A stretch of DNA of 64,000 bases from Candidatus Saganbacteria bacterium (GCA_013204645.1 JABMSE010000112.1:4-64003), one strand, 5' to 3'. Positions 35,858 to 60,041 are shown, counted from the first letter of the stretch. Program-made: numbers and translations. Notes: generated by a model not told the origin, from the letters alone.

Positions 35858-37282
35858 GTGGTAATTTTAAAACTAATTGGCGCCACCGTCTTTCCGACCG
35901 TTCTGGGGCTATCTTTTGTTAATCTCTTTTTAAACCACAAAAAAGACATTAATATTTTTGAGCGGCTAGCTTTTGGCTTCTTAGCTGGGATGATGCTTTT
36001 AGTTTTAGAGATGCTCTTGCTTTCTCAGCTAAAAATTGCCTTTTCCCTACTTTTCTTGACCCTACCCTGGATTCCCTTAATAGTTATCGGGCTGTACTTT
36101 GGTTATAAAAATAGCCTCTTTTCGCTAGAGTTTAAACTCAATAGGCTGAAGCTTCCCAGACTTACCCCCCCAGGTCTATCTAGCGCTTTCACTGTGCGAA
36201 AGTCCGCCGAAGTCCCCACGAAACATCGGGACGAAGGCGGATTGAATTGGATTGAAATAGCCCTAATCTTGTTTATCTGCTTTGAAGTCTTTTTTGTTTT
36301 CTCGTCTACCCTAATCAAGCCAGTAGTTACCTGTGATGCTTGGAGTAACTATTCCTGGCGGGGGAAAATGTTTTTTATTGAGAAAACCTCGATTGTCAAA
36401 AACACCGCTCAAACTGGCCACCCCTTATATAACTGTCTTAATCAAACCTGGGTTTTTATGTGCTTAAATGACTGGAATGATCTACTAGGTAAAATTTTCT
36501 ATCCCTTATATTATTTATCTTTGCTAGTAATATTTTACTTTACGGTTTCGCGCAAGCAAACTCGCTTTTTTAGTTTACTGGCAACGGCTATGCTCGCCAG
36601 CCTTCCTTTTTTAATCTATCATGCCAGTACCGCCTATGCGGATTTCCCCTTAGCTACTTATTATTTTGCGGGGATATCGCTTCTCTTTCTCTTTTTTAAT
36701 AGGCCCAAAATAAATTATTTGCTCTTAGCTGCTTTATTTTTACTTAGTACAGCTACTATCAAAAACGAGGCTTACTTTTACCTATTTATGACCTTTATCG
36801 TCTTTGCTGCCACAATTTTTATGGGTAAATTTAAAGAAGTAAAGGGAATAAAATCCATCCGTATCACAACCATTGCTTTAGCTCTTTTGGGCACAGCTTT
36901 TATGACTTATAAGATATTCTTCTCTTCCCACGAGGCGCTGCGCTATGCCCCTACCCTAGATTTCACAAGAGTATGGCCGCTGCTTTTAGTTTTCACAGAT
37001 TACTTGTTTGTCCGGGGAAACTTCAGTATTGTTTGGTTCCTCCTAATTCTTTTGCTCATTTTCAATTTCAAGAAACTCAAAAACAACTTCAATCTAAGCT
37101 TACTAGCACTGGTTCTTTTAAACTTATTTGGATTAATGGCTTATTATTTTGTCTTAGAGCAAACTATGTTTGATTGGCTTTTCTATGTTACCCCGGCGGT
37201 TCGCAATATTTTGCAATTTATGCCCATTGTGCTACTTTTAGTTGGCAATTTGCTGGTGATTAAAAATAAAAATGAAGCTTAG
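35858..37282 (+). CDS. Polytopic integral membrane protein (possible GT-C-type glycosyltransferase partner)
   Basis: 474 aa with more than 10 hydrophobic helices. Translationally coupled to the preceding polyprenol-P-sugar synthase-like GT2, since its start overlaps that gene's stop. Confidence 0.4.
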   Translation: MVILKLIGATVFPTVLGLSFVNLFLNHKKDINIFERLAFGFLAGMMLLVLEMLLLSQLKIAFSLLFLTLPWIPLIVIGLYFGYKNSLFSLEFKLNRLKLPRLTPPGLSSAFTVRKSAEVPTKHRDEGGLNWIEIALILFICFEVFFVFSSTLIKPVVTCDAWSNYSWRGKMFFIEKTSIVKNTAQTGHPLYNCLNQTWVFMCLNDWNDLLGKIFYPLYYLSLLVIFYFTVSRKQTRFFSLLATAMLASLPFLIYHASTAYADFPLATYYFAGISLLFLFFNRPKINYLLLAALFLLSTATIKNEAYFYLFMTFIVFAATIFMGKFKEVKGIKSIRITTIALALLGTAFMTYKIFFSSHEALRYAPTLDFTRVWPLLLVFTDYLFVRGNFSIVWFLLILLLIFNFKKLKNNFNLSLLALVLLNLFGLMAYYFVLEQTMFDWLFYVTPAVRNILQFMPIVLLLVGNLLVIKNKNEA

Positions 37283-38144
37283 CATTATAATCGTAAATTA
37301 TAACGACAAGGAATTAACCCTCAATCTCCTTAAATCAATCTACAGAAATACCCAAGAAAAAGATTTTGAAACAATCGTTGTGGACAACAATTCGAAAGAT
37401 AACAGCATTTCAGCCATAAAATCCAGCTACCCAGCAGTAAATATTATTGCCAATTCCAAAAACCGGGGTTTCCCCCCCGCTGTCAATCAAGGGATTAAAT
37501 TAAGTAATGGTGACTATATTCTACTCCTTAATCCGGATATTAATATCTCCCCGGGAGCCATTGATTCGCTGCTTAAGTTTATGGAGCAACACGTAAAAGC
37601 CGGGGCAGCTGGGTGCAAAATAGTAAACTTGGATGGATCAATACAATTGTCTGGTAAAAGCTTCCCAAACCCACTAGTCATGCTCTTTGTAACCTTAAAT
37701 TTTCACAAGCTGTTTCCCAATAATCCTATAACACGAAAATACTATCATTCTTCAGATTACAGTAAAACCCATCAGGTTCAACACCTTATGGCATCCTGTT
37801 TAATGGTGAAAAAATCAGTAATTGATAAAGTAGGTTTGATGGATGAAAACTTTTTCCTCTATTGTGATGATGTAGATTGGTGTTTTCGCATCCATAACGC
37901 TGGCTATGAAATTTGGTATATTGCCGACACAGAAGTTACCCATGCTAAGGGAGAAACAACTAAAAGGGAAAGCTATCGCGGCATAATTGAATATCACAAG
38001 AGCGCTTGGTATTTCTACAAAAAATATTATTATAAGCGTTACCCTAAAATATTAAGTTTCGTTTTTTATGTGGGGCTAGGAATAAGAAAATATTGGTTCC
38101 TCGCCGCCAATTTCTTGCGCAGAGATAAAAGGGTTAGATATTAA
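37272..38144 (+). CDS. Glycosyltransferase family 2
   Basis: LSIIIVNYNDKELTLNLLKSIYRN...ETIVVDNNSKDNS canonical GT2 motif. Confidence 0.7.
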   Translation: MKLSIIIVNYNDKELTLNLLKSIYRNTQEKDFETIVVDNNSKDNSISAIKSSYPAVNIIANSKNRGFPPAVNQGIKLSNGDYILLLNPDINISPGAIDSLLKFMEQHVKAGAAGCKIVNLDGSIQLSGKSFPNPLVMLFVTLNFHKLFPNNPITRKYYHSSDYSKTHQVQHLMASCLMVKKSVIDKVGLMDENFFLYCDDVDWCFRIHNAGYEIWYIADTEVTHAKGETTKRESYRGIIEYHKSAWYFYKKYYYKRYPKILSFVFYVGLGIRKYWFLAANFLRRDKRVRY

Positions 38145-38550
38145 GGTTTCTCTTGCTGACACGGAATGAAAAATGTTTGTGGCCAAAATAGGTGCCTACC
38201 ACAATTACAATCATCACTATCCCTTGACCAACAATCGGAGTAACAGCAAAAAATTCTACTAAAACGGGTAAGAGAATAAGGTTTAAGGCAATCGCCCCCC
38301 CATAAATGACATAAAAACGCAGATACTCTTTCAAATAATTGCCCCTAGTCCTGAAAACAAAGATCTTATAGCCAATATAAGCGTTGGTGATTGCCAAAAT
38401 ATTACTGATAACGACCAAAATCATATAATTAATCTTTTTGGCCAAGAGAAAATAGAGGGCAACAAAAACAAGATAGCCAAAAAGCGTGTTCCATAAGCCA
38501 ACCAGCAAATACCAGATTTTATCACGATGCTTGGTGTAGAATCTTTTCAT
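38134..38550 (-). CDS. GtrA-family small membrane protein
   Basis: 138 aa with four hydrophobic helices. N-terminal KIWYLLVGLWNTLFGYLVFVALY is typical of GtrA. Confidence 0.6.
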   Translation of the reverse strand: MKRFYTKHRDKIWYLLVGLWNTLFGYLVFVALYFLLAKKINYMILVVISNILAITNAYIGYKIFVFRTRGNYLKEYLRFYVIYGGAIALNLILLPVLVEFFAVTPIVGQGIVMIVIVVGTYFGHKHFSFRVSKRNLNI

Positions 38551-38555
38551 GAGCC

Positions 38556-39482
38556 CTAGAAATTAATTCTTTCCTTTTCAATAACCAGAGGGCGCCTGAG
38601 CACCTGGGTGTGGATTGAACCGATGTATTCGCCGAGAATTCCTATAAAGAAAAGCTGGACCGAAGCAAAGAAAAAGAAACCAATAACCAATGGGGCAATA
38701 CCAACCGAAAACCTTTCCCAAAACATCAATTTATAAATAAAATAGCCGAGGGCAATCAAAATACAAATTACCGAAAGGCCAAAACCCAGCATGGTGGCTA
38801 ACCGCAAAGGTACCCTTGAATGGTTGGTGATACCCAGCATGGCCATATCATATAAAGTGTAAAAATTGTTTTTTGTCCGTCCCCTCTTCCGTTTGGGTTG
38901 AATATATTCAATCTCGGCAATATTAAATCCAACATCTGAAATCAATCCGCGGAAATAAGGGTAAGGATCATCCGTTTCTTTTAAAATATCAATTACGCTT
39001 TTATCATACAACCCAAAACCAGTAAAACCAGAAATGAGTCTTATTTCCGAAAGTCCTCCAATCAGACGGTAGAAAAGCTTGCGCACCGAAAACATCAATA
39101 GAAATTCGTGACTTTGTTTTTTTACTCCCACAACGATTTTAAAGCCCTCTTCCCATTTTTTTATGAAATCAACGATCATTGCTGGCGGATCTTGAAAATC
39201 AGAAGACAAAGAAATAGCTGCGTCTCCTTTGGCTTGCAGTAAAGCGTAAAAAGGGGATCGGATATGGCCAAAATTACGGGTGTTAACAATAATCTTGACA
39301 TTTTTATCCTTTTTCGCAATTTGTTTCAATATCTCTAGGCTGCGGTCAGAAGAAGCATTATCAATAAAAATATGTTCATAATTGTAAGGTTGGTTAGCCA
39401 AAACCTGTTTTACTTGCTGGTATATTTCCTCAATATTAGCTTCTTCGTTATAACAAGGTGTGACAATACTGATTAATTTCAT
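38556..39482 (-). CDS. GT2 polyprenol-phosphate glycosyltransferase (GtrB/DPM1-like)
   Basis: KLISIVTPCYNEEANIEEIYQQV, IDNASSDRS, and two C-terminal TM helices. Confidence 0.7.
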   Translation of the reverse strand: MKLISIVTPCYNEEANIEEIYQQVKQVLANQPYNYEHIFIDNASSDRSLEILKQIAKKDKNVKIIVNTRNFGHIRSPFYALLQAKGDAAISLSSDFQDPPAMIVDFIKKWEEGFKIVVGVKKQSHEFLLMFSVRKLFYRLIGGLSEIRLISGFTGFGLYDKSVIDILKETDDPYPYFRGLISDVGFNIAEIEYIQPKRKRGRTKNNFYTLYDMAMLGITNHSRVPLRLATMLGFGLSVICILIALGYFIYKLMFWERFSVGIAPLVIGFFFFASVQLFFIGILGEYIGSIHTQVLRRPLVIEKERINF

Positions 39483-39558
39483 AGTAGCCCCTATGTTTAG
39501 TACCTTTATTTTACCATACTATGTGGCTTTGCAAAGTAAATTAAAGGCAATCCGGAAA

Positions 39559-39673
39559 AAGGTAAGAATTTATTGTTTTCTTCTCGCTGCGGAACTCGCC
39601 CTTCGCTCCTCACTTTGTTCCTCGCTCGGGCTCAAACAGTCCTCGCTGCGAAAAAACAATAAATTCTTACCTT
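39559..39673. repeat. 21-bp perfect inverted repeat flanking a 73-nt GC-rich spacer (MITE-like / large stem-loop RNA element)
   Basis: AAGGTAAGAATTTATTGTTTT at 39559-39579 is the exact reverse complement of 39653-39673. The spacer contains about five CTCGCT-like motifs (four exact CTCGCT). The element is flanked by an A5 run on the left and a T7 run on the right. Confidence 0.6.
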
Positions 39674-41181
39674 ATTTTTTTATACAGCCTCACCCTTACC
39701 CGATACGAACCAGGCTGATGCCTTTTAATTGGCAATTTGGAAACCAGTGTTTCCTCGTAAGGAATATATTTTTGTTCGTTTTTGAGCGTGTAGTTTTCTT
39801 CCAAAGCGGCTTTGATTCTATCAATATAACCCGGAGGAAAAGCCCGGTCATCATGAATATTAGTTACAAACCATATTCTTTCTGGCTTTTCATCTGCCAG
39901 GTTAATTTTTACTTCCTCAAGATCAAATATGGGGGCATTGACATGTCCGGTTATGTTCAAATAATAATTCAGCAGCCGATAAACCACAAAATGGTTGCTA
40001 GAAAGTATGCTATCGCCTTTTCGATATTGCTCCTTAATTGAGGTGGCCACATCTCTCCATGGCTCTATCTGGTTAGAATTATGATAACTAACCAAATTAA
40101 AATAGTTATGGATGGAATAAGCCTGTAGCAATATAATCACTAAAATGACTCCACATCTCAAACTGACCTTTTTAACTCGAACAATCGAATAGCCTATTAA
40201 AAGCAGATAAAAAGGCAAAGTTATTATCAAAAACTTCGGCATCGTTGGCGCAAGGAACAATACCGAAAAGAGAATGGGAAAAAGACACAAGATCAACAAA
40301 TAAACGATCCTTTTATCCGGAAGCCGTTTGAGGTTCCATAAAAAGAGAAAGCCAAACACTATGGCAGCTGGGAGAACGATCATCAAATTCCACGGAGCAA
40401 CTGTTTCCCCCAAGGATAGAACGAAAAAAACCAGGGGGAGCTTTAAATACCAGGGGAAAACCGAAAAAGCCATATCGGAAGTACCAGAAATCACTGCAGA
40501 AAAATTTACGAATAACATCGCAATATAAGCTGGGAGTGCCAACGCCCCGACTAAAATTTGCAGAGTTAAAATGTGAAGAAATGTAGATGTCTTTTTTTCT
40601 TGCCAGAGAGAAAATACTAAGTAAATAAATTGTGCGGCAATGATAAGGGATCCATAAATATGGGTCATGACCAGTAGAAATGAAGCCACAAAATAAGCGG
40701 TCGAGACCAATAGATTTCGTTTACCCGATACTAAATTCCAAAAATAAAAGCTTGAAAGGATTGACAAAAGCAGGAGGAGCCCATACATTCGGATTTCCTG
40801 TGAATGCATTAAGGCCAAGGGAGATATTGCAAGTAAAAGCATGCTGACCAACGCGGTTTTATCGTCAAAGATCTTTCGGGCAAAGAAAAAGAAAGCGATT
40901 ATACTTGATAAGCCAATTAAAATTGATAATAAGCGCAAGATATACTCCCCTACCCCAAAAAGTTTTGTCCAAGCTGATAATAAAATGAAATAAACTGGCA
41001 GGTGCGAATCTTTTATTAGATTAAGGGTGGCTAGACCTATCGGATCGGAACTTACCTCCTGGGCCAAATAAAAACTATGGGTTTCATCCCCCCATAAGCT
41101 CCTAAAAATAGGATTATAAAAGCGAAGAGCTGATGCGAAAATGAGAATAAGCAAAAACCAAATTAAAGTTTTCCTATTCAT
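39667..41181 (-). CDS. GT-C family glycosyltransferase (ArnT/PMT_2-like, polyprenol-P-sugar dependent)
   Basis: N-terminus LIWFLLILIFASALRFYNPIFRSLWGDETHSFYLAQ resembles ArnT/PMT. 504 aa with many TM helices. Follows the GtrA/GtrB pair. Confidence 0.6.
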   Translation of the reverse strand: MNRKTLIWFLLILIFASALRFYNPIFRSLWGDETHSFYLAQEVSSDPIGLATLNLIKDSHLPVYFILLSAWTKLFGVGEYILRLLSILIGLSSIIAFFFFARKIFDDKTALVSMLLLAISPLALMHSQEIRMYGLLLLLSILSSFYFWNLVSGKRNLLVSTAYFVASFLLVMTHIYGSLIIAAQFIYLVFSLWQEKKTSTFLHILTLQILVGALALPAYIAMLFVNFSAVISGTSDMAFSVFPWYLKLPLVFFVLSLGETVAPWNLMIVLPAAIVFGFLFLWNLKRLPDKRIVYLLILCLFPILFSVLFLAPTMPKFLIITLPFYLLLIGYSIVRVKKVSLRCGVILVIILLQAYSIHNYFNLVSYHNSNQIEPWRDVATSIKEQYRKGDSILSSNHFVVYRLLNYYLNITGHVNAPIFDLEEVKINLADEKPERIWFVTNIHDDRAFPPGYIDRIKAALEENYTLKNEQKYIPYEETLVSKLPIKRHQPGSYRVRVRLYKKIR

Positions 41182-44537: not shown

Positions 44538-44549
44538 TTGTGTTGACCC

Positions 44550-45518
44550 CTATGCCAAAACAAGCTTCTTCCACCACTCCTGGTTGTTATAATACCAGCG
44601 AATTGTTTGGGAAAGGCCCTCCTTGAGTTGCGTTGTGGGTGCCCAGCCCAATTTTTTTATTTTCGAACAATCAAGCGCATATCTTCTATCGTGGCCTAGG
44701 CGATCCTTAACATATTTTATTAAATCTTTCGGCTTACCCAGTTCATCTAAAATCATTCGGGTTATAGCTATATTTTCTTCTTCGTTGTCTGCTCCGATAT
44801 TATAGATCTCCCCTACCACCCCTTTTCGTAAAACTAAATCAATGGCCTCACAATTATCCATAACATACAGCCAATCCCGCACGTTTTTACCATCGCCCTA
44901 CAAAGGCAATTTCTTATCCTGCAAGGCATTAGTTATAAAGAGGGGGATGATCTTTTCGGGATACTGTAAAGGCCCATAATTATTAGAAGAACGGGTGATA
45001 ATGGCTGGTAAATTGTAGGTCTTAAAATAAGCACGAACCAGGAGATCTCCTCCTGCCTTGGAGGCTGAATAAGGGGAATTGGGAGACAAATTCGATTCCT
45101 CTGTGAAAGAGCCTTTTTCAATGCTACCATACACTTCATCGGTTGAGATGTGGATATAACGGCCAATATTATTCTTTTTAACAGCCTCAAGCAATATATG
45201 CGTGCCAAAAACATCCGTTTGCACAAAAGAGCCCGCAGATACAATTGAGCGGTCAACATGCGTTTCAGCAGCAAAATTGACGATGGCATCGATTTTAGGC
45301 AACAAACTCAAGGCTTTGTCAACGGCACCTGAATCAGAAATGTCACCCTTAAAAAACCTATAGCGTGGCTCCTTTTCTAGGTCGGAAAGATTAGAAAGAT
45401 TGCCGGCATAGGTTAAATTGTCAAAATTGAGTATTTCATCTTCGGGATAGTTAGAAAGAATATAGTGGATAAAATTGCTGCCAATAAATCCGGCACCACC
45501 AGTAACAAGAAGCTTCAC
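44550..45518 (-). pseudogene. rfbB: dTDP-glucose 4,6-dehydratase interrupted by an in-frame TAG
   Basis: The N-terminal ORF (44898..45518) and the C-terminal ORF (44550..44882) are in the same frame. The only break is a TAG at 44898-44900, replacing the conserved Tyr of the ...LP(I/L)YGDG(K)NVRDWLYV motif. This is a one-nucleotide change, TAT to TAG. Confidence 0.7.
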
Positions 45519-53131: not shown

Positions 53132-53620
53132 CTAAAATATTTTCCCTGCGAATTGTGCTTTCAACTTATTTCCAAGTTTAGCATGCAAAGGGTTTTTATA
53201 AAGTCCTGAAAGAAGCTCAGAAACCACGGCCCGCTCCCGCGGAAGAGAAAGTAGAGCCTCTTCTTTTTGTTGCTCGGTAAAAAGTGATAAAAGAAAAGCA
53301 ATCATCTGCGGCCGCTCATAAACCAGCATAGTATAAGATTTTTTTGGCACTGGAGGGGGTGCCGGGGGCACTTCCCTTTGTTCCAGCTGAGGTGGAACTT
53401 CGCCTGCGTTAGGAAGGGCCAAAAAGCCCTTAAATTCATCCAAAACTTCCGAAAGGGCTTGTGGAGAGGGAGAAGGTAGGTGATTAATGCCTGAAGCAAT
53501 TAGATCGGCTAACTCATCCGGCAAATAACGCAACACCCGGGCCGAGGTATCGGTACCTAAGATTGACAAAAATATCGTGGCCTTTTCTCTTCCAGATAAA
53601 GGCATTACTCTGACAACCAT
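53132..53620 (-). CDS. fliG: FliG-like protein, N-terminal domain only (truncated rotor/switch protein)
   Basis: LSGREKATIFLSILGTDTSARVLRYLPDELADLIASGINHL...ALSEVLDEFKGF matches FliG_N. This is followed by a short segment resembling the start of the middle domain. The ORF is only 162 aa and ends with TAG, 3 nt before the fliH ATG. No C-terminal torque domain is encoded. Confidence 0.55.
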   Translation of the reverse strand: MVVRVMPLSGREKATIFLSILGTDTSARVLRYLPDELADLIASGINHLPSPSPQALSEVLDEFKGFLALPNAGEVPPQLEQREVPPAPPPVPKKSYTMLVYERPQMIAFLLSLFTEQQKEEALLSLPRERAVVSELLSGLYKNPLHAKLGNKLKAQFAGKIF

Positions 53621-55083: not shown

Positions 55084-55093
55084 GTTCTACTCC

Positions 55094-55456
55094 TTAAATC
55101 TGCATTTGAATAACTTCTTTAAAAGCTGTCACGGCTGAATTTACCGTGGTAACCGCTAATTGAACCATAATACTCATTTTAGACTGAGCCACCATTACAT
55201 CAGACAATTCTGCTTGGCCGTGTAAATATTTATCGATAAGTTGATTGGCATAAAACTCGGACTGACTAATTCCATTCAATGAATCAATAGCTTTGGATAG
55301 GATATCATCAAAAGGATTACGACTGAGTTTCATTGGGCTGGTGGGTTCTGCTGCCAAGTTAGGAGACGCAACCTCTGGGGCCTGGGCTAAGAAATCATCC
55401 CCTAGAATCTGGGCTAGACTTAAGTCTGCATTAATCGGGTTAATTTGTTCTACCAT
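55094..55456 (-). CDS. fliE: Flagellar hook-basal body protein FliE
   Basis: 120 aa. The C-terminus ...VQLAVTTVNSAVTAFKEVIQMQI fits the FliE signature. Confidence 0.65.
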   Translation of the reverse strand: MVEQINPINADLSLAQILGDDFLAQAPEVASPNLAAEPTSPMKLSRNPFDDILSKAIDSLNGISQSEFYANQLIDKYLHGQAELSDVMVAQSKMSIMVQLAVTTVNSAVTAFKEVIQMQI

Positions 55457-55511
55457 CTTATAATTCTACCTTCATTAGCTTCCCGCGAATGAACTTCGCG
55501 GTTTCCAAAAT

Positions 55512-55949
55512 TTACGGTATTTGCAAAGTATCCTGCATCATTTTCTTTGTCGCATTAAAAGCCGTAATATTGGCCTCGTAAAGCCTTTGTGTGTAGACTA
55601 AGTCTACCATTTCTTCTGACAGATTCACATTGGGTAATTCCACAAACCCTTCAGCATCGGAATCCGGGTGACCCGGTTTATAAATTTTTTGCAAGGGTGT
55701 TGTATCCTCTACCACATCGACAACCTCTACTCCAGCCACACCTCTTGCAAGCCTGTTTTGGGCTATCGCGAGCTCATCGTTAAAGCTAACTGGTTTTTCA
55801 CCCAAAACTGCAATACGACGACGGTAAGGACCACCATAAACGGTGTAGGTAGTATTAACATTAGCTATATTTGAAGCAATTAATTCTAACGTGATACGTT
55901 GCGCAGCAAGACCAGAAACACTGATATCCATAGCTTGATTTAATCCCAT
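55512..55949 (-). CDS. flgC: Flagellar basal-body rod protein FlgC
   Basis: MGLNQAMDISVSGLAAQRITLELIASNIANVNTT... plus a C-terminal ...VDLVYTQRLYEANITAF... rod-protein heptads. Confidence 0.8.
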   Translation of the reverse strand: MGLNQAMDISVSGLAAQRITLELIASNIANVNTTYTVYGGPYRRRIAVLGEKPVSFNDELAIAQNRLARGVAGVEVVDVVEDTTPLQKIYKPGHPDSDAEGFVELPNVNLSEEMVDLVYTQRLYEANITAFNATKKMMQDTLQIP

Positions 55950-55956
55950 GCCTTAA

Positions 55957-56262
55957 CTACCTCCTTCCCTGACTGGTTATATTCTTTAAGACATTTATTT
56001 TGCTGGATAAAAGCTTGATATAACTAGAATATTTTATAGAGTTATCTGCCAGGGCTGCCAGTTCGTCCTCTAAAATAACATCTTTTTTGTCCGACCTCTC
56101 TACCGCACGCATCAGATGCTCATCAAAAGTAAGCGCCGTAAAACCTGGAGTTTTTGCGTTTGCGATATTATGCGAAATCACTTCCTGCCAACGAGTGGAA
56201 ATATCCATGGCCCTTTCAAGCTGATTAAACTGCGCATCAAACATTTCAATCGGTCTAGACAT
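55957..56262 (-). CDS. flgB: Flagellar basal-body rod protein FlgB
   Basis: ERAMDISTRWQEVISHNIANAKTPGF N-terminal rod motif. ~100 aa. Confidence 0.65.
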   Translation of the reverse strand: MSRPIEMFDAQFNQLERAMDISTRWQEVISHNIANAKTPGFTALTFDEHLMRAVERSDKKDVILEDELAALADNSIKYSSYIKLLSSKINVLKNITSQGRR

Positions 56263-56983: not shown

Positions 56984-57312
56984 TTGACTTCAACTGCTTT
57001 AGAAAAAGTTGGAAAAACATTTTCAGCCGAAAAGGTCTTACTTTTTACCAATTCCAAAGCAAGTTTATTCACAAACATATCAGACCCAAAACGCGAACTC
57101 AAAAAATCATTATCTTTGTCATCTCCACTAAAATTAGGCGTCTTAAAGGCCTGCTTAAAAACCTCCCGATAAAAAATCACCATGAATTCATCTTTAATGC
57201 TTTCACGGGCAGCCTGCGTTTGTGCGTGGCTAGCTGCCACAATAATCTCATTCATTTTTCTGGTATCAGGAGAAGATCCCATTTGGCTTAGCGCAGTAAT
57301 TTCCGAAACCAT
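56980..57312 (-). CDS. flgJ: Rod-binding (FlgJ N-terminal-like) protein
   Basis: DEFMVIFYREVFKQAFK resembles the Rod-binding domain consensus (FEamflqqmLksmr). 110 aa. Sits in the expected position directly after flgI. Confidence 0.45.
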   Translation of the reverse strand: MVSEITALSQMGSSPDTRKMNEIIVAASHAQTQAARESIKDEFMVIFYREVFKQAFKTPNFSGDDKDNDFLSSRFGSDMFVNKLALELVKSKTFSAENVFPTFSKAVEVK

Positions 57313-58571
57313 TAAATCACCTCAAGTTCTGCCTTTATGGCACCAGCTCTTTTCATGGCCTGCAAAATAGCAATTAGGTCCTTGGGGGTAGCCCCAATCG
57401 TGTTTAACCCGCGCACTAGTGTTGATAGGGTTGCTCCCCCCTCAACCAAGGTTAACTTTCCTTCGGTTTTCTTTAATTGGGCATTTGAACGTGCAAGGTA
57501 ATAGCTTTCATCCAAAACCGAATCTTGCGTGTACCCTTCCGAAAAAAGAGAAACATTCCCAATGCTTACATCGATTCCCGCATAAGAGACCGCTACCGGA
57601 GAAATCTTCACATTTTCACCAATTACAATCGTTCCAGTACGCTCATTAACCACAATTTTGGCAACTACATCTGGGACAATAGTCAAACTCTCAATACGTG
57701 AGACAAGCTCAACAATATCATCATCATCGGAAATTGGAACGGTAATCGTAGCCGCATCGAGAGCCAAAGCTTCCAAGCCAATCCTTCTAATTGAGGAAAC
57801 CAAGCGACTTGCCGTAGTAAAATCTGGCTCATCCAAAACAATGGTAAGCAACTCCTTATTAGTGATTGAAACCGGCACTTATTTTTCAACCAAGGCCCCC
57901 CCCGGAATTCGGCCAACCGTGGTCTGACCATGTCTAACATATGGAATAGAAGGGGTGGTGGATTCCAGGCCAATTAGGAGGCTACCCTGGGCCACTGCAT
58001 AAACCTCCTCATTAACCCCTTGAAGGGGTGTAATCAATAGGGTTCCGCCTTGAAGAGAAGTTGCATCCCCCATAGACGAAACAGTAACATCCATTTTTTG
58101 CCCTGGCTTTACAAAAGATGGAAGGGTTGCCGTAACCATAACCGCTGCTACATTTCTTGATTTAAAATCAACTGACTGGGGTACAACTCCCATTCTGGAC
58201 AACAAATTGGTCAAGGCCTGCTGGGTAAAACCGGTTTGACTTCGGTCCCCGGTGTTTTTTAGGCCAACCACCAAACCAAATCCCATTAACTGATTATCCC
58301 GTGCTTCTAAGACATGAGCTATATCTTTTACTCTAACGGAGGGGGATTGAGCAGATGCAAAATACTCCGCCTGCGGCGGACAAACTACAAAGTACAAAAT
58401 ACAACCCAAAAACAAAATTTTCTTAATAACTTGTGCCTTGTGCCCTCGTCCTGAGGTCTGGCCCAACATGACTCGGTCCGAAGGATTTGTGCCTTGTAAC
58501 ATTATTTGCTTCCTCCTAAAAGATCCAATTAAAAAGCCGAGTAATCCAACCCGGGGACTCGGTGTCCGCAA
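57312..58571 (-). pseudogene. flgI: Flagellar P-ring protein FlgI interrupted by an in-frame TAA
   Basis: The N-terminal part (57879..58571) and the C-terminal part (57312..57878) are collinear with full-length FlgI and lie in the same frame. A single TAA at 57879-57881 sits where E. coli FlgI has Glu (VERELP; here VEK*VP). Confidence 0.7.
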
Positions 58572-59238
58572 TCACGCCAGTCCCTCTTACGGAAACCTCA
58601 GCATTAGCCACCTGATAGGAATAAACTGTATTCTCGCCACTTAGATCTTTAGGTCGAACAATTCCGCTTACTGTAATCTCTTGCATTTCATCATTTACCT
58701 CGACCTTATGTCGTCCACGAATTTCAAGATTACCATTGGGAAAGACATTTGTAACCCAGGCCGCCACCCGAGCAGAAACATCATTGCTGCGGGTTGTCTC
58801 CCCATCCCCAGTAAATTTATTCGAGACTTGTCCCGTTACCTGGTTGGAGGCTCCAATTATAGGAGCCAAGCGCTGAATAGTATGGGCAAACTGTAGCCCC
58901 AAATCATCCCTGACATTCGTTTTAGTCCTAGCTTTATTCTTAGCACTGGTGTTCTCCATGATAATAACATTTACAATATCTCCCACGCGGTAAGCCTTTT
59001 GGGCGTTGTAAGGTGAAGCACTATTATCATTCCAGACAGAATCTGCTCTCACAGGCAAGATAGAAAAATAAGCTACAAGAGACAAGATACAAAAACCAAA
59101 TAATAACCAATAACCAATATTCAACATCCAAATTGAAGGCCTTTGAAATTTGTTTTTTGGAATTTGCAATTTATTTGAATCTTGTACCTTGTATCTTGTA
59201 TCTTGCATCTTGTGTCTTGTATCTTGTGCGTTTATCAT
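58516..59238 (-). CDS. flgH: Flagellar L-ring protein FlgH
   Basis: ...YRVGDIVNVIIMENTSAKNKAR...GNLEIRGRHKVEVNDEMQEITVSGIVRPKDL... is a canonical FlgH core. The likely true start is the Met at ~59127 (MLNIGYWLLFGFCILSLVAYF signal peptide). The longer ORF reaching 59238 reads through the heptamer array. Confidence 0.75.
   Translation of the reverse strand: MINAQDTRHKMQDTRYKVQDSNKLQIPKNKFQRPSIWMLNIGYWLLFGFCILSLVAYFSILPVRADSVWNDNSASPYNAQKAYRVGDIVNVIIMENTSAKNKARTKTNVRDDLGLQFAHTIQRLAPIIGASNQVTGQVSNKFTGDGETTRSNDVSARVAAWVTNVFPNGNLEIRGRHKVEVNDEMQEITVSGIVRPKDLSGENTVYSYQVANAEVSVRGTGVIADTESPGWITRLFNWIF
59181..59229. repeat. Seven tandem copies of heptanucleotide CTTGTAT (degenerate: CTTGTAC/CTTGCAT/CTTGTGT/CTTGTGC)
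   Basis: Seven contiguous 7-nt units read directly from the sequence. The array lies between the flgA stop (59235) and the flgH signal-peptide Met (~59127). Confidence 0.85.
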
Positions 59239-60041
59239 TTTAACACCACCTCAACTTCTCCTGGGGCAATCAGAATTCCCTCCAGGGTTTTTTTTGTCTC
59301 TTTTTTTCTTACCGTTATCTTGCCACCTATATAGCCATCCATTAAGGCTATCCCGCTCGTTTTCAGCAACAAATTAGGCGCCCTTACGAAAATCGTAACT
59401 GAATCCCCACGCCGGGCTTGCGGAACTTCTTTTATCATCCAAGAAAACACGGTACTATTTTGGGGGATGGTTGTTTTTGCTTCTCGGCCAGAAACTTGAT
59501 CAAAAGAAGTGAAATATTTCTGCGGTAACATTGCAATATCTCTTTTTTCTAAAGCTAGATCGTCTCTTTTTATCTCCTGGCCACGTTTAATTTTTTTCGC
59601 CGCCGCCACAATACCTAAAAAAACCTCAACCTTTGCTCGAATAAAAATGGTGCTTTTATCCTTTCCATCAAAAACCTCGATGGGAAAAATAACATTGCCC
59701 ACCGGCCTAAAATCTTTATAAGTTTCTTTTATTTTTAAATCAGCATTAGGAGACAGACCACGCAAGATATCAAATGCCTTATCTGCCATCCGATAAGTGA
59801 CGGAAATATCCAAACCCGTAAGCTTCGGATCATAGGAAATGACCAAGCCTTCTACGAGTTTGGTAACCTTCTGTTCAGGATTATCCAAGGCAGCAGCTGG
59901 AATCGATAAAATACAAGATACAAGACACAAGATACAATAACCAAATAATATCCGATATCCAATATCCAACATCCAAATTGGAGATTTTTGAAATTTGATT
60001 TTTGAAACTCGTAATTTATTTATATTTTGTATCTTGGTCAT
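59235..60041 (-). CDS. flgA: Flagellar basal-body P-ring formation chaperone FlgA
   Basis: C-terminal SAF/FlgA domain (...GDSVTIFVRAPNLLLKTSGIALMDGYIGGKITVRKK...). The likely start is the Met of MLDIGYRILFGYCILCLVSCILSIPAAA, at ~59972. Confidence 0.65.
   Translation of the reverse strand: MTKIQNINKLRVSKIKFQKSPIWMLDIGYRILFGYCILCLVSCILSIPAAALDNPEQKVTKLVEGLVISYDPKLTGLDISVTYRMADKAFDILRGLSPNADLKIKETYKDFRPVGNVIFPIEVFDGKDKSTIFIRAKVEVFLGIVAAAKKIKRGQEIKRDDLALEKRDIAMLPQKYFTSFDQVSGREAKTTIPQNSTVFSWMIKEVPQARRGDSVTIFVRAPNLLLKTSGIALMDGYIGGKITVRKKETKKTLEGILIAPGEVEVVLK

Follow-up and report, generated by a model that had tools for sequence, protein, structure and literature searches.

The locus lies in a 64,000-nucleotide stretch of a Candidatus Saganbacteria bacterium genome (GCA_013204645.1, JABMSE010000112.1:4-64003), referred to here as the window. 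Positions ~500 to 46,000 hold a tightly packed polysaccharide-synthesis cluster (~46 kb), followed by housekeeping and flagellar genes. Genes elsewhere in the cluster overlap or abut, and the 184-nt gap at 39483-39666 is its only sizeable same-strand gap. It carries a long hairpin whose flanking genes are both encoded on the minus strand. Upstream on that strand are wzx, a GT2 gene and a GT-C-fold glycosyltransferase gene; downstream are a gtrB-like gene and a gtrA-like gene, with a promoter-like site between hairpin and gtrB (Table 1). The C-terminus of the GT-C protein aligns to its very end with seven homologues and is complete, so the element did not truncate the gene and truncation by insertion is ruled out. 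On its far side, gtrA overlaps a second, convergent GT2 gene (plus strand, 37272-38144) by 11 nt at 38134-38144, with no terminator between the two, and these converging operons must read into each other.

Table 1. Features of the hairpin locus, in window coordinates
Feature	Position	Strand	Remarks
gtrA-like gene (PF04138)	38134-38550	-	Last gene in the minus-strand unit
gtrB-like polyprenyl-phosphate glycosyltransferase gene (PF00535)	38556-39482	-	Downstream gene
Promoter-like TTTGCA-16 nt-TAAAAT	39508-39535	-	Putative; upstream TG (TGnTAAAAT); between hairpin and gtrB
Whole hairpin, 24-nt arms at 96%	39556-39676	-	Predicted most stable structure among intergenic gaps of the window
U5 tract in sense RNA	39556-39560	-	Immediately 3' of the GG...CC stem base; terminator tail score 3.76
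Left arm of perfect 21-nt inverted repeat, AAGGTAAGAATTTATTGTTTT	39559-39579		3' half of the outer stem in sense (minus-strand) RNA
Core, 73 nt, non-palindromic	39580-39652	-	60% GC, purine-rich on the minus strand, no TA dinucleotide
Right arm of inverted repeat	39653-39673		Holds the GT-C gene stop TAA, 39667-39669
T7 tract after hairpin, antisense direction	39675-39681	+	Tail score 4.12
GT-C-fold glycosyltransferase gene, 504 aa (PF13231 PMT_2)	39667-41181	-	Upstream gene; complete C-terminus …RLYKKIR* in comparison with homologues

Other parts of the window show features of their own. A dTDP-glucose/GDP-mannose dehydratase-like ORF (44538-45518) is only 206 aa long, covers profile positions 1-209 of 332 and is followed by a 360-nt ORF-poor gap; the gene is therefore probably truncated or frameshifted. 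The flgI gene (flagellar P-ring, 57312-58571, minus strand) is split by an in-frame TAA at 57879-57881 (…GALVEK*VPVSIT…), which could reflect pseudogene formation, a nonsense allele or a sequencing error. A fliG-like ORF (53132-53620) of only 162 aa matches the N-terminal and middle domains only and may be a frameshift or a truncated gene. Between fliF and a sigma-factor gene, 1171 nt (55084-56254) hold no ORF of at least 150 aa and no Rfam match. Inverted repeats of CAAGATACAAGA-like words occur at 59070-59227 and 59914-60036 (23 nt at 87%, 18 nt at 83% and 17 nt at 82%) and lie within the flgH and flgA ORFs or at their ends.

The hairpin consists of two 21-nt arms, complementary at 21 of 21 positions, and a 73-nt spacer, together a 115-bp unit. 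Extension of the arms to 24 nt introduces one mismatch (96%). This is the longest inverted repeat in the 64-kb window. Across 40 simulated windows generated with a first-order Markov model at the size and composition of the real one, the longest perfect inverted repeat within 200 nt measured 12-16 nt. Because the simulated windows reach at most 16 nt against 21 nt here, the arms are not a chance occurrence, and the inverted repeat is real and non-random. On the plus strand the hairpin is preceded by an A5 run, the last two bases of which belong to the left arm, and in antisense RNA it is followed by A-U7. The anatomy set out in the earlier note was reproduced in these respects: the perfect 21-bp terminal inverted repeats, the sizes of spacer and unit, the intergenic location within the 184-nt gap, the flanking A5 and T7 runs, the overlap of the right arm with the GT-C stop codon, and a spacer that is GC-rich at 60% compared with 40% for the contig and window.

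Composition, rather than repetition, characterizes the core. The plus strand is 67% pyrimidine (C29 T20 G15 A9), making the core purine-rich as sense RNA. The same note had described a CTCGCT repeat with four exact units; the core contains three (39583, 39621 and 39642). A hexamer present three times occurs in 13% of dinucleotide shuffles of the core, six CTCGCT copies at no more than one mismatch occur in 33%, and TRF reports no tandem repeat in the core. Shuffles and TRF thus argue against a real repeat, which is rejected in favor of a composition effect, and the true property of the core is its strand asymmetry. Three GAGGA-type motifs are present in the core, one of them within the predicted apical loop.

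Folding predictions indicate a strong structure on the sense strand. Minus-strand RNA from 39545-39690 (146 nt) has a predicted folding energy of -55.3 kcal/mol with a z-score of -6.0. The antisense RNA of the element reaches -45 kcal/mol (z -5.7), and its single-stranded DNA has a z-score of -6.7. The predicted fold is by far the most stable among all intergenic gaps in the window. In sense RNA it forms a rod of ~45 bp, in which a perfect AU-rich outer stem of 21-24 bp is continued by an imperfect GC-rich inner stem. Folded alone, the core yields -26.1 kcal/mol (z -2.7) as minus-strand RNA and -16.8 kcal/mol (z -0.8) as plus-strand RNA; it is thus predicted to fold better than its shuffles on the sense strand only. 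The sense and antisense U-tail scores (Table 1) compare with 3.87 for a canonical-looking terminator at ~63.3 kb. A consensus scan for intrinsic terminators did not call the element because its stem and interior exceed the limits of the scan. Rfam matched nothing in the whole window at its gathering threshold; relaxed to E<=10 for 39400-39800, it gave only two eukaryotic snoRNA chance matches.

The element locus is also present in a JGI contig (L001), which differs from the window by one mismatch in 3358 nt, and in the Logan assembly of SRR28106056 (contigs L002 and L003). The hairpin is therefore not an artefact of a single assembly. The three assemblies carrying it are at least 99.9% identical, show it in the same orientation and may stem from one population. 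The sole difference between window and JGI contig is at position 39544, where the window has A and both L001 and L003 have T. With the T allele, the minus strand reads a perfect TATAAT in place of TTTAAT, 11 nt after the hairpin, with a weak -35 sequence, TTCTTA, 17 nt upstream in the hairpin arm. The polymorphism may be a promoter-creating change at the edge of the element. L001 and L003 both end at window position ~38465-38470 inside gtrA, and the shared ends suggest strain heterogeneity there.

Further copies were sought in several collections. Neither a second copy nor a solo arm was found in the 64-kb window at up to 3 mismatches. A scan of 185,579 GTDB species-representative genomes (a set without the host MAG) with an arm/core junction 20-mer gave six chance matches only; all fall within coding DNA (Pantoea, Erwinia, Lewinella and a Poseidoniaceae archaeon), and similarity ends where the 20-mer ends. 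JGI metagenome contigs from samples other than that holding L001 were searched with a degenerate 23-mer that fits the element at either end. The one match (L014, 186-208) ends at the pattern ends, has no partner arm and corresponds to about the chance expectation. Scans of IMG/VR with a core piece and an arm piece returned no matches, and blastn against plasmids and phages returned nothing meaningful. A six-frame chimera of the element, meant to catch copies read through by gene callers, found nothing among 5.8 billion protein clusters at E<=10. Exact-protein look-ups of gtrA and the upstream GT2, aimed at strains with an empty site, yielded nothing new. No transposase, recombinase or intI was seen among the scanned ORFs of the window.

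The neighborhood of the hairpin differs among relatives. In GT-C orthologues at 56-67% identity, an NTP-transferase gene follows 20-37 nt after the GT-C gene and the element is absent. Four WOR-1 loci (L019-L022) share the order GT2, GT-C, gtrB, gtrA with the window and have an unrelated 88-nt AT-rich gap in place of the element. The closest gtrBA relative, an ENA contig (L015), is 89% identical over 1322 nt (129-1450 against window 38162-39483), and also lacks the element. Its homology ends one base before the gtrB ATG; the upstream 129 nt are unrelated to the window, with an alignment score within the shuffle range. An apparent resemblance of this upstream sequence to the core (GA-rich, TGTTTTGAG…CGAGC) likewise scored within the shuffle distribution and was discarded. 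A pair resembling the promoter-like site of the window, TTGCAA … TGATAAAAT, precedes gtrB in L015. Different genes precede gtrBA in L016 and L019, and across relatives these are GT-C, an epimerase and an unknown gene. Since homology with L015 stops at the gtrB ATG and the sequence upstream is unrelated, gtrBA appears to be a shuffled module that recombines at its start codon. The whole intergenic region, including the element, likewise appears specific to this lineage. For an empty-site comparison, the available relatives are distant (GT-C at no more than 67% amino acid identity), lack the element and differ in neighbors or gap.

Our leading interpretation, held tentatively at just short of an even chance, is that the hairpin marks a transcription-unit boundary, where it would serve as a terminator or insulator and probably as an RNase III site. 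The order of stop codon, hairpin, U-tract, promoter-like site and gene, along with the predicted fold strength and sense-strand bias, points to a boundary element acting at the RNA level. The element would be transcribed at the 3' end of the minus-strand wzx, GT2 and GT-C message and fold into a rod. With the GT-C stop codon at its start and U5 directly after it, the element would most likely terminate or strongly attenuate transcription leaving the GT-C operon, and it could protect or stabilize the 3' end of that transcript. Its perfect duplex of more than 20 bp would be the kind of substrate cut by RNase III. Expression of gtrB-gtrA would then come mainly from their own promoter, 20-50 nt beyond the hairpin, and on the plus strand the stem with A-U7 could halt antisense transcripts arriving from the convergent plus-strand operon. 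Sequence anatomy, computed fold, position and absence from the relatives compared are direct results; termination, RNase III processing and promoter use are steps we infer by analogy. SPRITE and Correia elements provide documented cases of terminator-like elements with long stems next to CDS 3' ends and of such hairpins being cut by RNase III (PMC3049150, PMC10969869, PMC2649163). As for its origin, the element may have arisen by a MITE-like insertion or as a palindrome formed in situ.

Certain properties speak against a boundary function. The stem is AU-rich, spans 21 bp or more and encloses 73 nt, and the sense U-tract has only 5 residues. In typical intrinsic terminators the stem is GC-rich and 5-14 bp long and the loop measures 3-8 nt; a short GC-rich stem of this kind is lacking here, and U-tracts are present as U5 in the sense and A-U7 in the antisense direction. 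The L019 junction (GT-C, 88-nt gap, gtrB) manages without any such hairpin, which is therefore dispensable. A terminator role alone also does not explain the non-palindromic, GC-rich and purine-rich core. The earlier proposal of a terminator with a large structured loop is consistent with the anatomy, given the start at the stop codon, the U-tracts on both strands and the promoter-like site beyond, although the element is far removed from canonical form and the scan did not call it.

One further observation bears on the origin of the hairpin. The contigs L002 and L003 of the Logan k=31 assembly stop at 39594 and 39638, leaving a 43-nt hole (39595-39637) centered exactly on the center of the hairpin. 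Such breaks occur at the edge of sequence present more than once in a sample; the inverted repeat itself is too short to cause this one. Inversion between the arms predicts a break at the arm ends, and deletion between internal 9-nt direct repeats, CTCGCTGCG, predicts 39591/39642; neither agrees with 39594/39638, and both causes were rejected. This leaves other causes: the inner 15 nt of the arms may recur in further copies or variants, the apical 43 nt may differ between alleles, or fragments containing the hairpin may have been lost where coverage was low.

The break enters the next explanation, that the element is a MITE copy moved in trans by a transposase encoded elsewhere, its terminator or processing effect being a by-product. 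We regard this as possible though rather unlikely, and a MITE origin is compatible with boundary-element function. The MITE option in the earlier note is matched by the architecture, in which perfect terminal inverted repeats enclose a short non-coding core (below the usual limit of ~300 bp) that is non-palindromic and foreign to the host in composition. A length of 115 bp with 21-nt arms is of the order seen in RUP (~107 bp) and in Correia elements (PMC3049150, PMC10969869). The element is missing from the equivalent junction of every relative compared, and a position right after a stop codon is a tolerated site. Counting inward from arm position 7, the Logan break falls after exactly 30 nt (k-1) on both sides, which is no more than a hint of further copies. 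TA dinucleotides lie just outside that position, and a TA target-site duplication would be conceivable only with the true ends of the element there. A mobile unit beginning there would, however, leave 4-6 further complementary bases outside it unexplained, and a conserved TA duplication would displace the Logan break by 2 nt. Beyond the arms, whether taken as 21 or 24 nt, there is no direct repeat (CCGGAAA… against …ATTTTTT). The option is further weakened by the lack of a second copy or solo arm in the window, by the chance matches alone that came from the GTDB, JGI, IMG/VR, plasmid, phage and six-frame searches, and by the lack of a transposase among the scanned ORFs. Some MITEs do occur at one copy per genome, such as MITEAba12 (PMC10969869).

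The palindrome may instead have been made in place, by template switching or as a recombination scar joining gtrBA to the GT-C operon, with no selected function; this is improbable. Its location exactly at the module junction, where relatives have unrelated sequence, is what such a scar would show. Its restriction to one population, with three assemblies at least 99.9% identical, and the lack of detectable conservation among the relatives compared favor the same origin. A 21/21 repeat at a stop codon, with U-tracts on both sides and a promoter-like site after it, nevertheless looks organized, and the predicted sense-strand specificity of core folding is not in keeping with a scar.

A quite improbable alternative is a small structured RNA or protein-binding cis-element, for example one whose purine-rich GGA/SD-like core, presented by a long stem, controls gtrBA or titrates a regulator. 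A GC-rich island in AT-rich intergenic DNA is a classic sign of structured RNA, and the hairpin forms such an island; its core is predicted to beat its shuffles on the sense strand only, and one of its three GAGGA-type motifs falls in the predicted apical loop. Against this, the element precedes the promoter-like site and would thus lie outside a gtrB 5' UTR, and the closest gtrBA relative has no element. Rfam gave nothing at E<=10 beyond the eukaryotic snoRNA chance matches, no homologue appeared in any collection searched, and a perfect 21-bp AU stem is atypical of riboswitches. The promoter-like site between hairpin and gtrB, the element-free L015 and the empty Rfam result likewise disfavor the earlier suggestion of a riboregulator for the gtrAB-like genes. 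Very improbably, the hairpin is the first member seen of a Saganbacteria-specific mobile-hairpin family or a lineage-specific structured RNA, in which the purine-rich GGA/SD-like core would be functional (for example by binding a regulator) and the apical 43 nt would vary between strains, explaining the symmetric break.

We give almost no credence to an inverton, a DNA switch flipped by a site-specific recombinase that would phase-vary surface glycosylation. Inverted repeats of ~20 bp around a short segment in a polysaccharide locus are the classic setting, which this locus resembles, and one sample has an assembly break inside the element. The core, however, has no TA dinucleotide and so cannot supply a -10 box whichever way it faces; the promoter-like site sits beyond the arms, the orientation is identical in all assemblies, and no recombinase occurs among the scanned window ORFs. 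The Logan contigs also run 15 nt past the arms, where an inversion would break at the arm ends. An invertible promoter was consequently rejected for want of a core -10 box, a second orientation and an invertase among the scanned ORFs. An integron attC site is defined by R''/R' core sites, imperfect pairing with extrahelical bases and an integron context; here the RYYYAAC … GTTRRRY motifs are absent, pairing is perfect and no intI is found among the scanned ORFs, and attC was likewise discarded.

Overall, the feature is of an ordinary type: a long hairpin in an intergenic position at the boundary of an operon, which may descend from a small mobile element. If the boundary reading holds, it represents a local detail of operon structure, by which GT-C operon expression is separated from gtrBA in one uncultured Saganbacteria population. 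If further genomic copies exist, they would define a MITE or terminator-like repeat family in this phylum, which is sister to Cyanobacteria and for which, to our knowledge, no such repeats have been described. Such copies would also serve as a marker, both in strain typing and at recombination junctions of surface-polysaccharide loci.

The hairpin resembles a canonical Rho-independent terminator in lying directly after a stop codon and in having a GG/CC stem base and a U-tract, here on both strands and hence bidirectional in form; it is unlike one in being a 115-nt rod with an AU-rich outer stem. As an extragenic hairpin between co-oriented genes it is similar to REP/REPIN sequences that stabilize mRNA within operons, and like them it could block 3'-5' decay and uncouple the expression of upstream and downstream genes. 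REPINs differ in being fully palindromic, highly repeated and associated with RAYT transposases, whereas the core here is non-palindromic and neither repeats nor a RAYT were seen in the window.

In Neisseria, Correia elements form mRNA hairpins that RNase III binds or cleaves, and promoters can arise from the element ends (PMC2649163, PMC10969869). Promoter creation has a putative counterpart here, in that the sole polymorphism among the assemblies makes the perfect TATAAT near the hairpin edge. Both Correia elements and RUP of pneumococcus share with the hairpin a size of ~100-150 bp, terminal inverted repeats, a core and an intergenic position beside genes. Those families, whose cores are conserved, are known by copy numbers above 100, by target-site duplications (TA or other) and by a candidate parent IS (PMC2649163, PMC10969869, PMC3049150); no counterpart of these features emerged for the hairpin in the sequences searched. 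SPRITE, which combines an 18-bp duplex with a U-rich tract, is found preferentially near the 3' ends of CDSs, and a terminator role has been proposed for it (PMC3049150). It matches the hairpin in being small and intergenic, in lying near a CDS 3' end and in having a long duplex (18 bp compared with 21-24 bp here) followed by a U-rich tract, and a target-site duplication is not established for either. SPRITE, on the other hand, occurs 30 times per genome, is AT-rich over its whole length and has terminal repeats of only AAAA/TTTT, whereas the hairpin has one known copy, a GC-rich 73-nt core and perfect 21-nt arms, and the two sequences are dissimilar.
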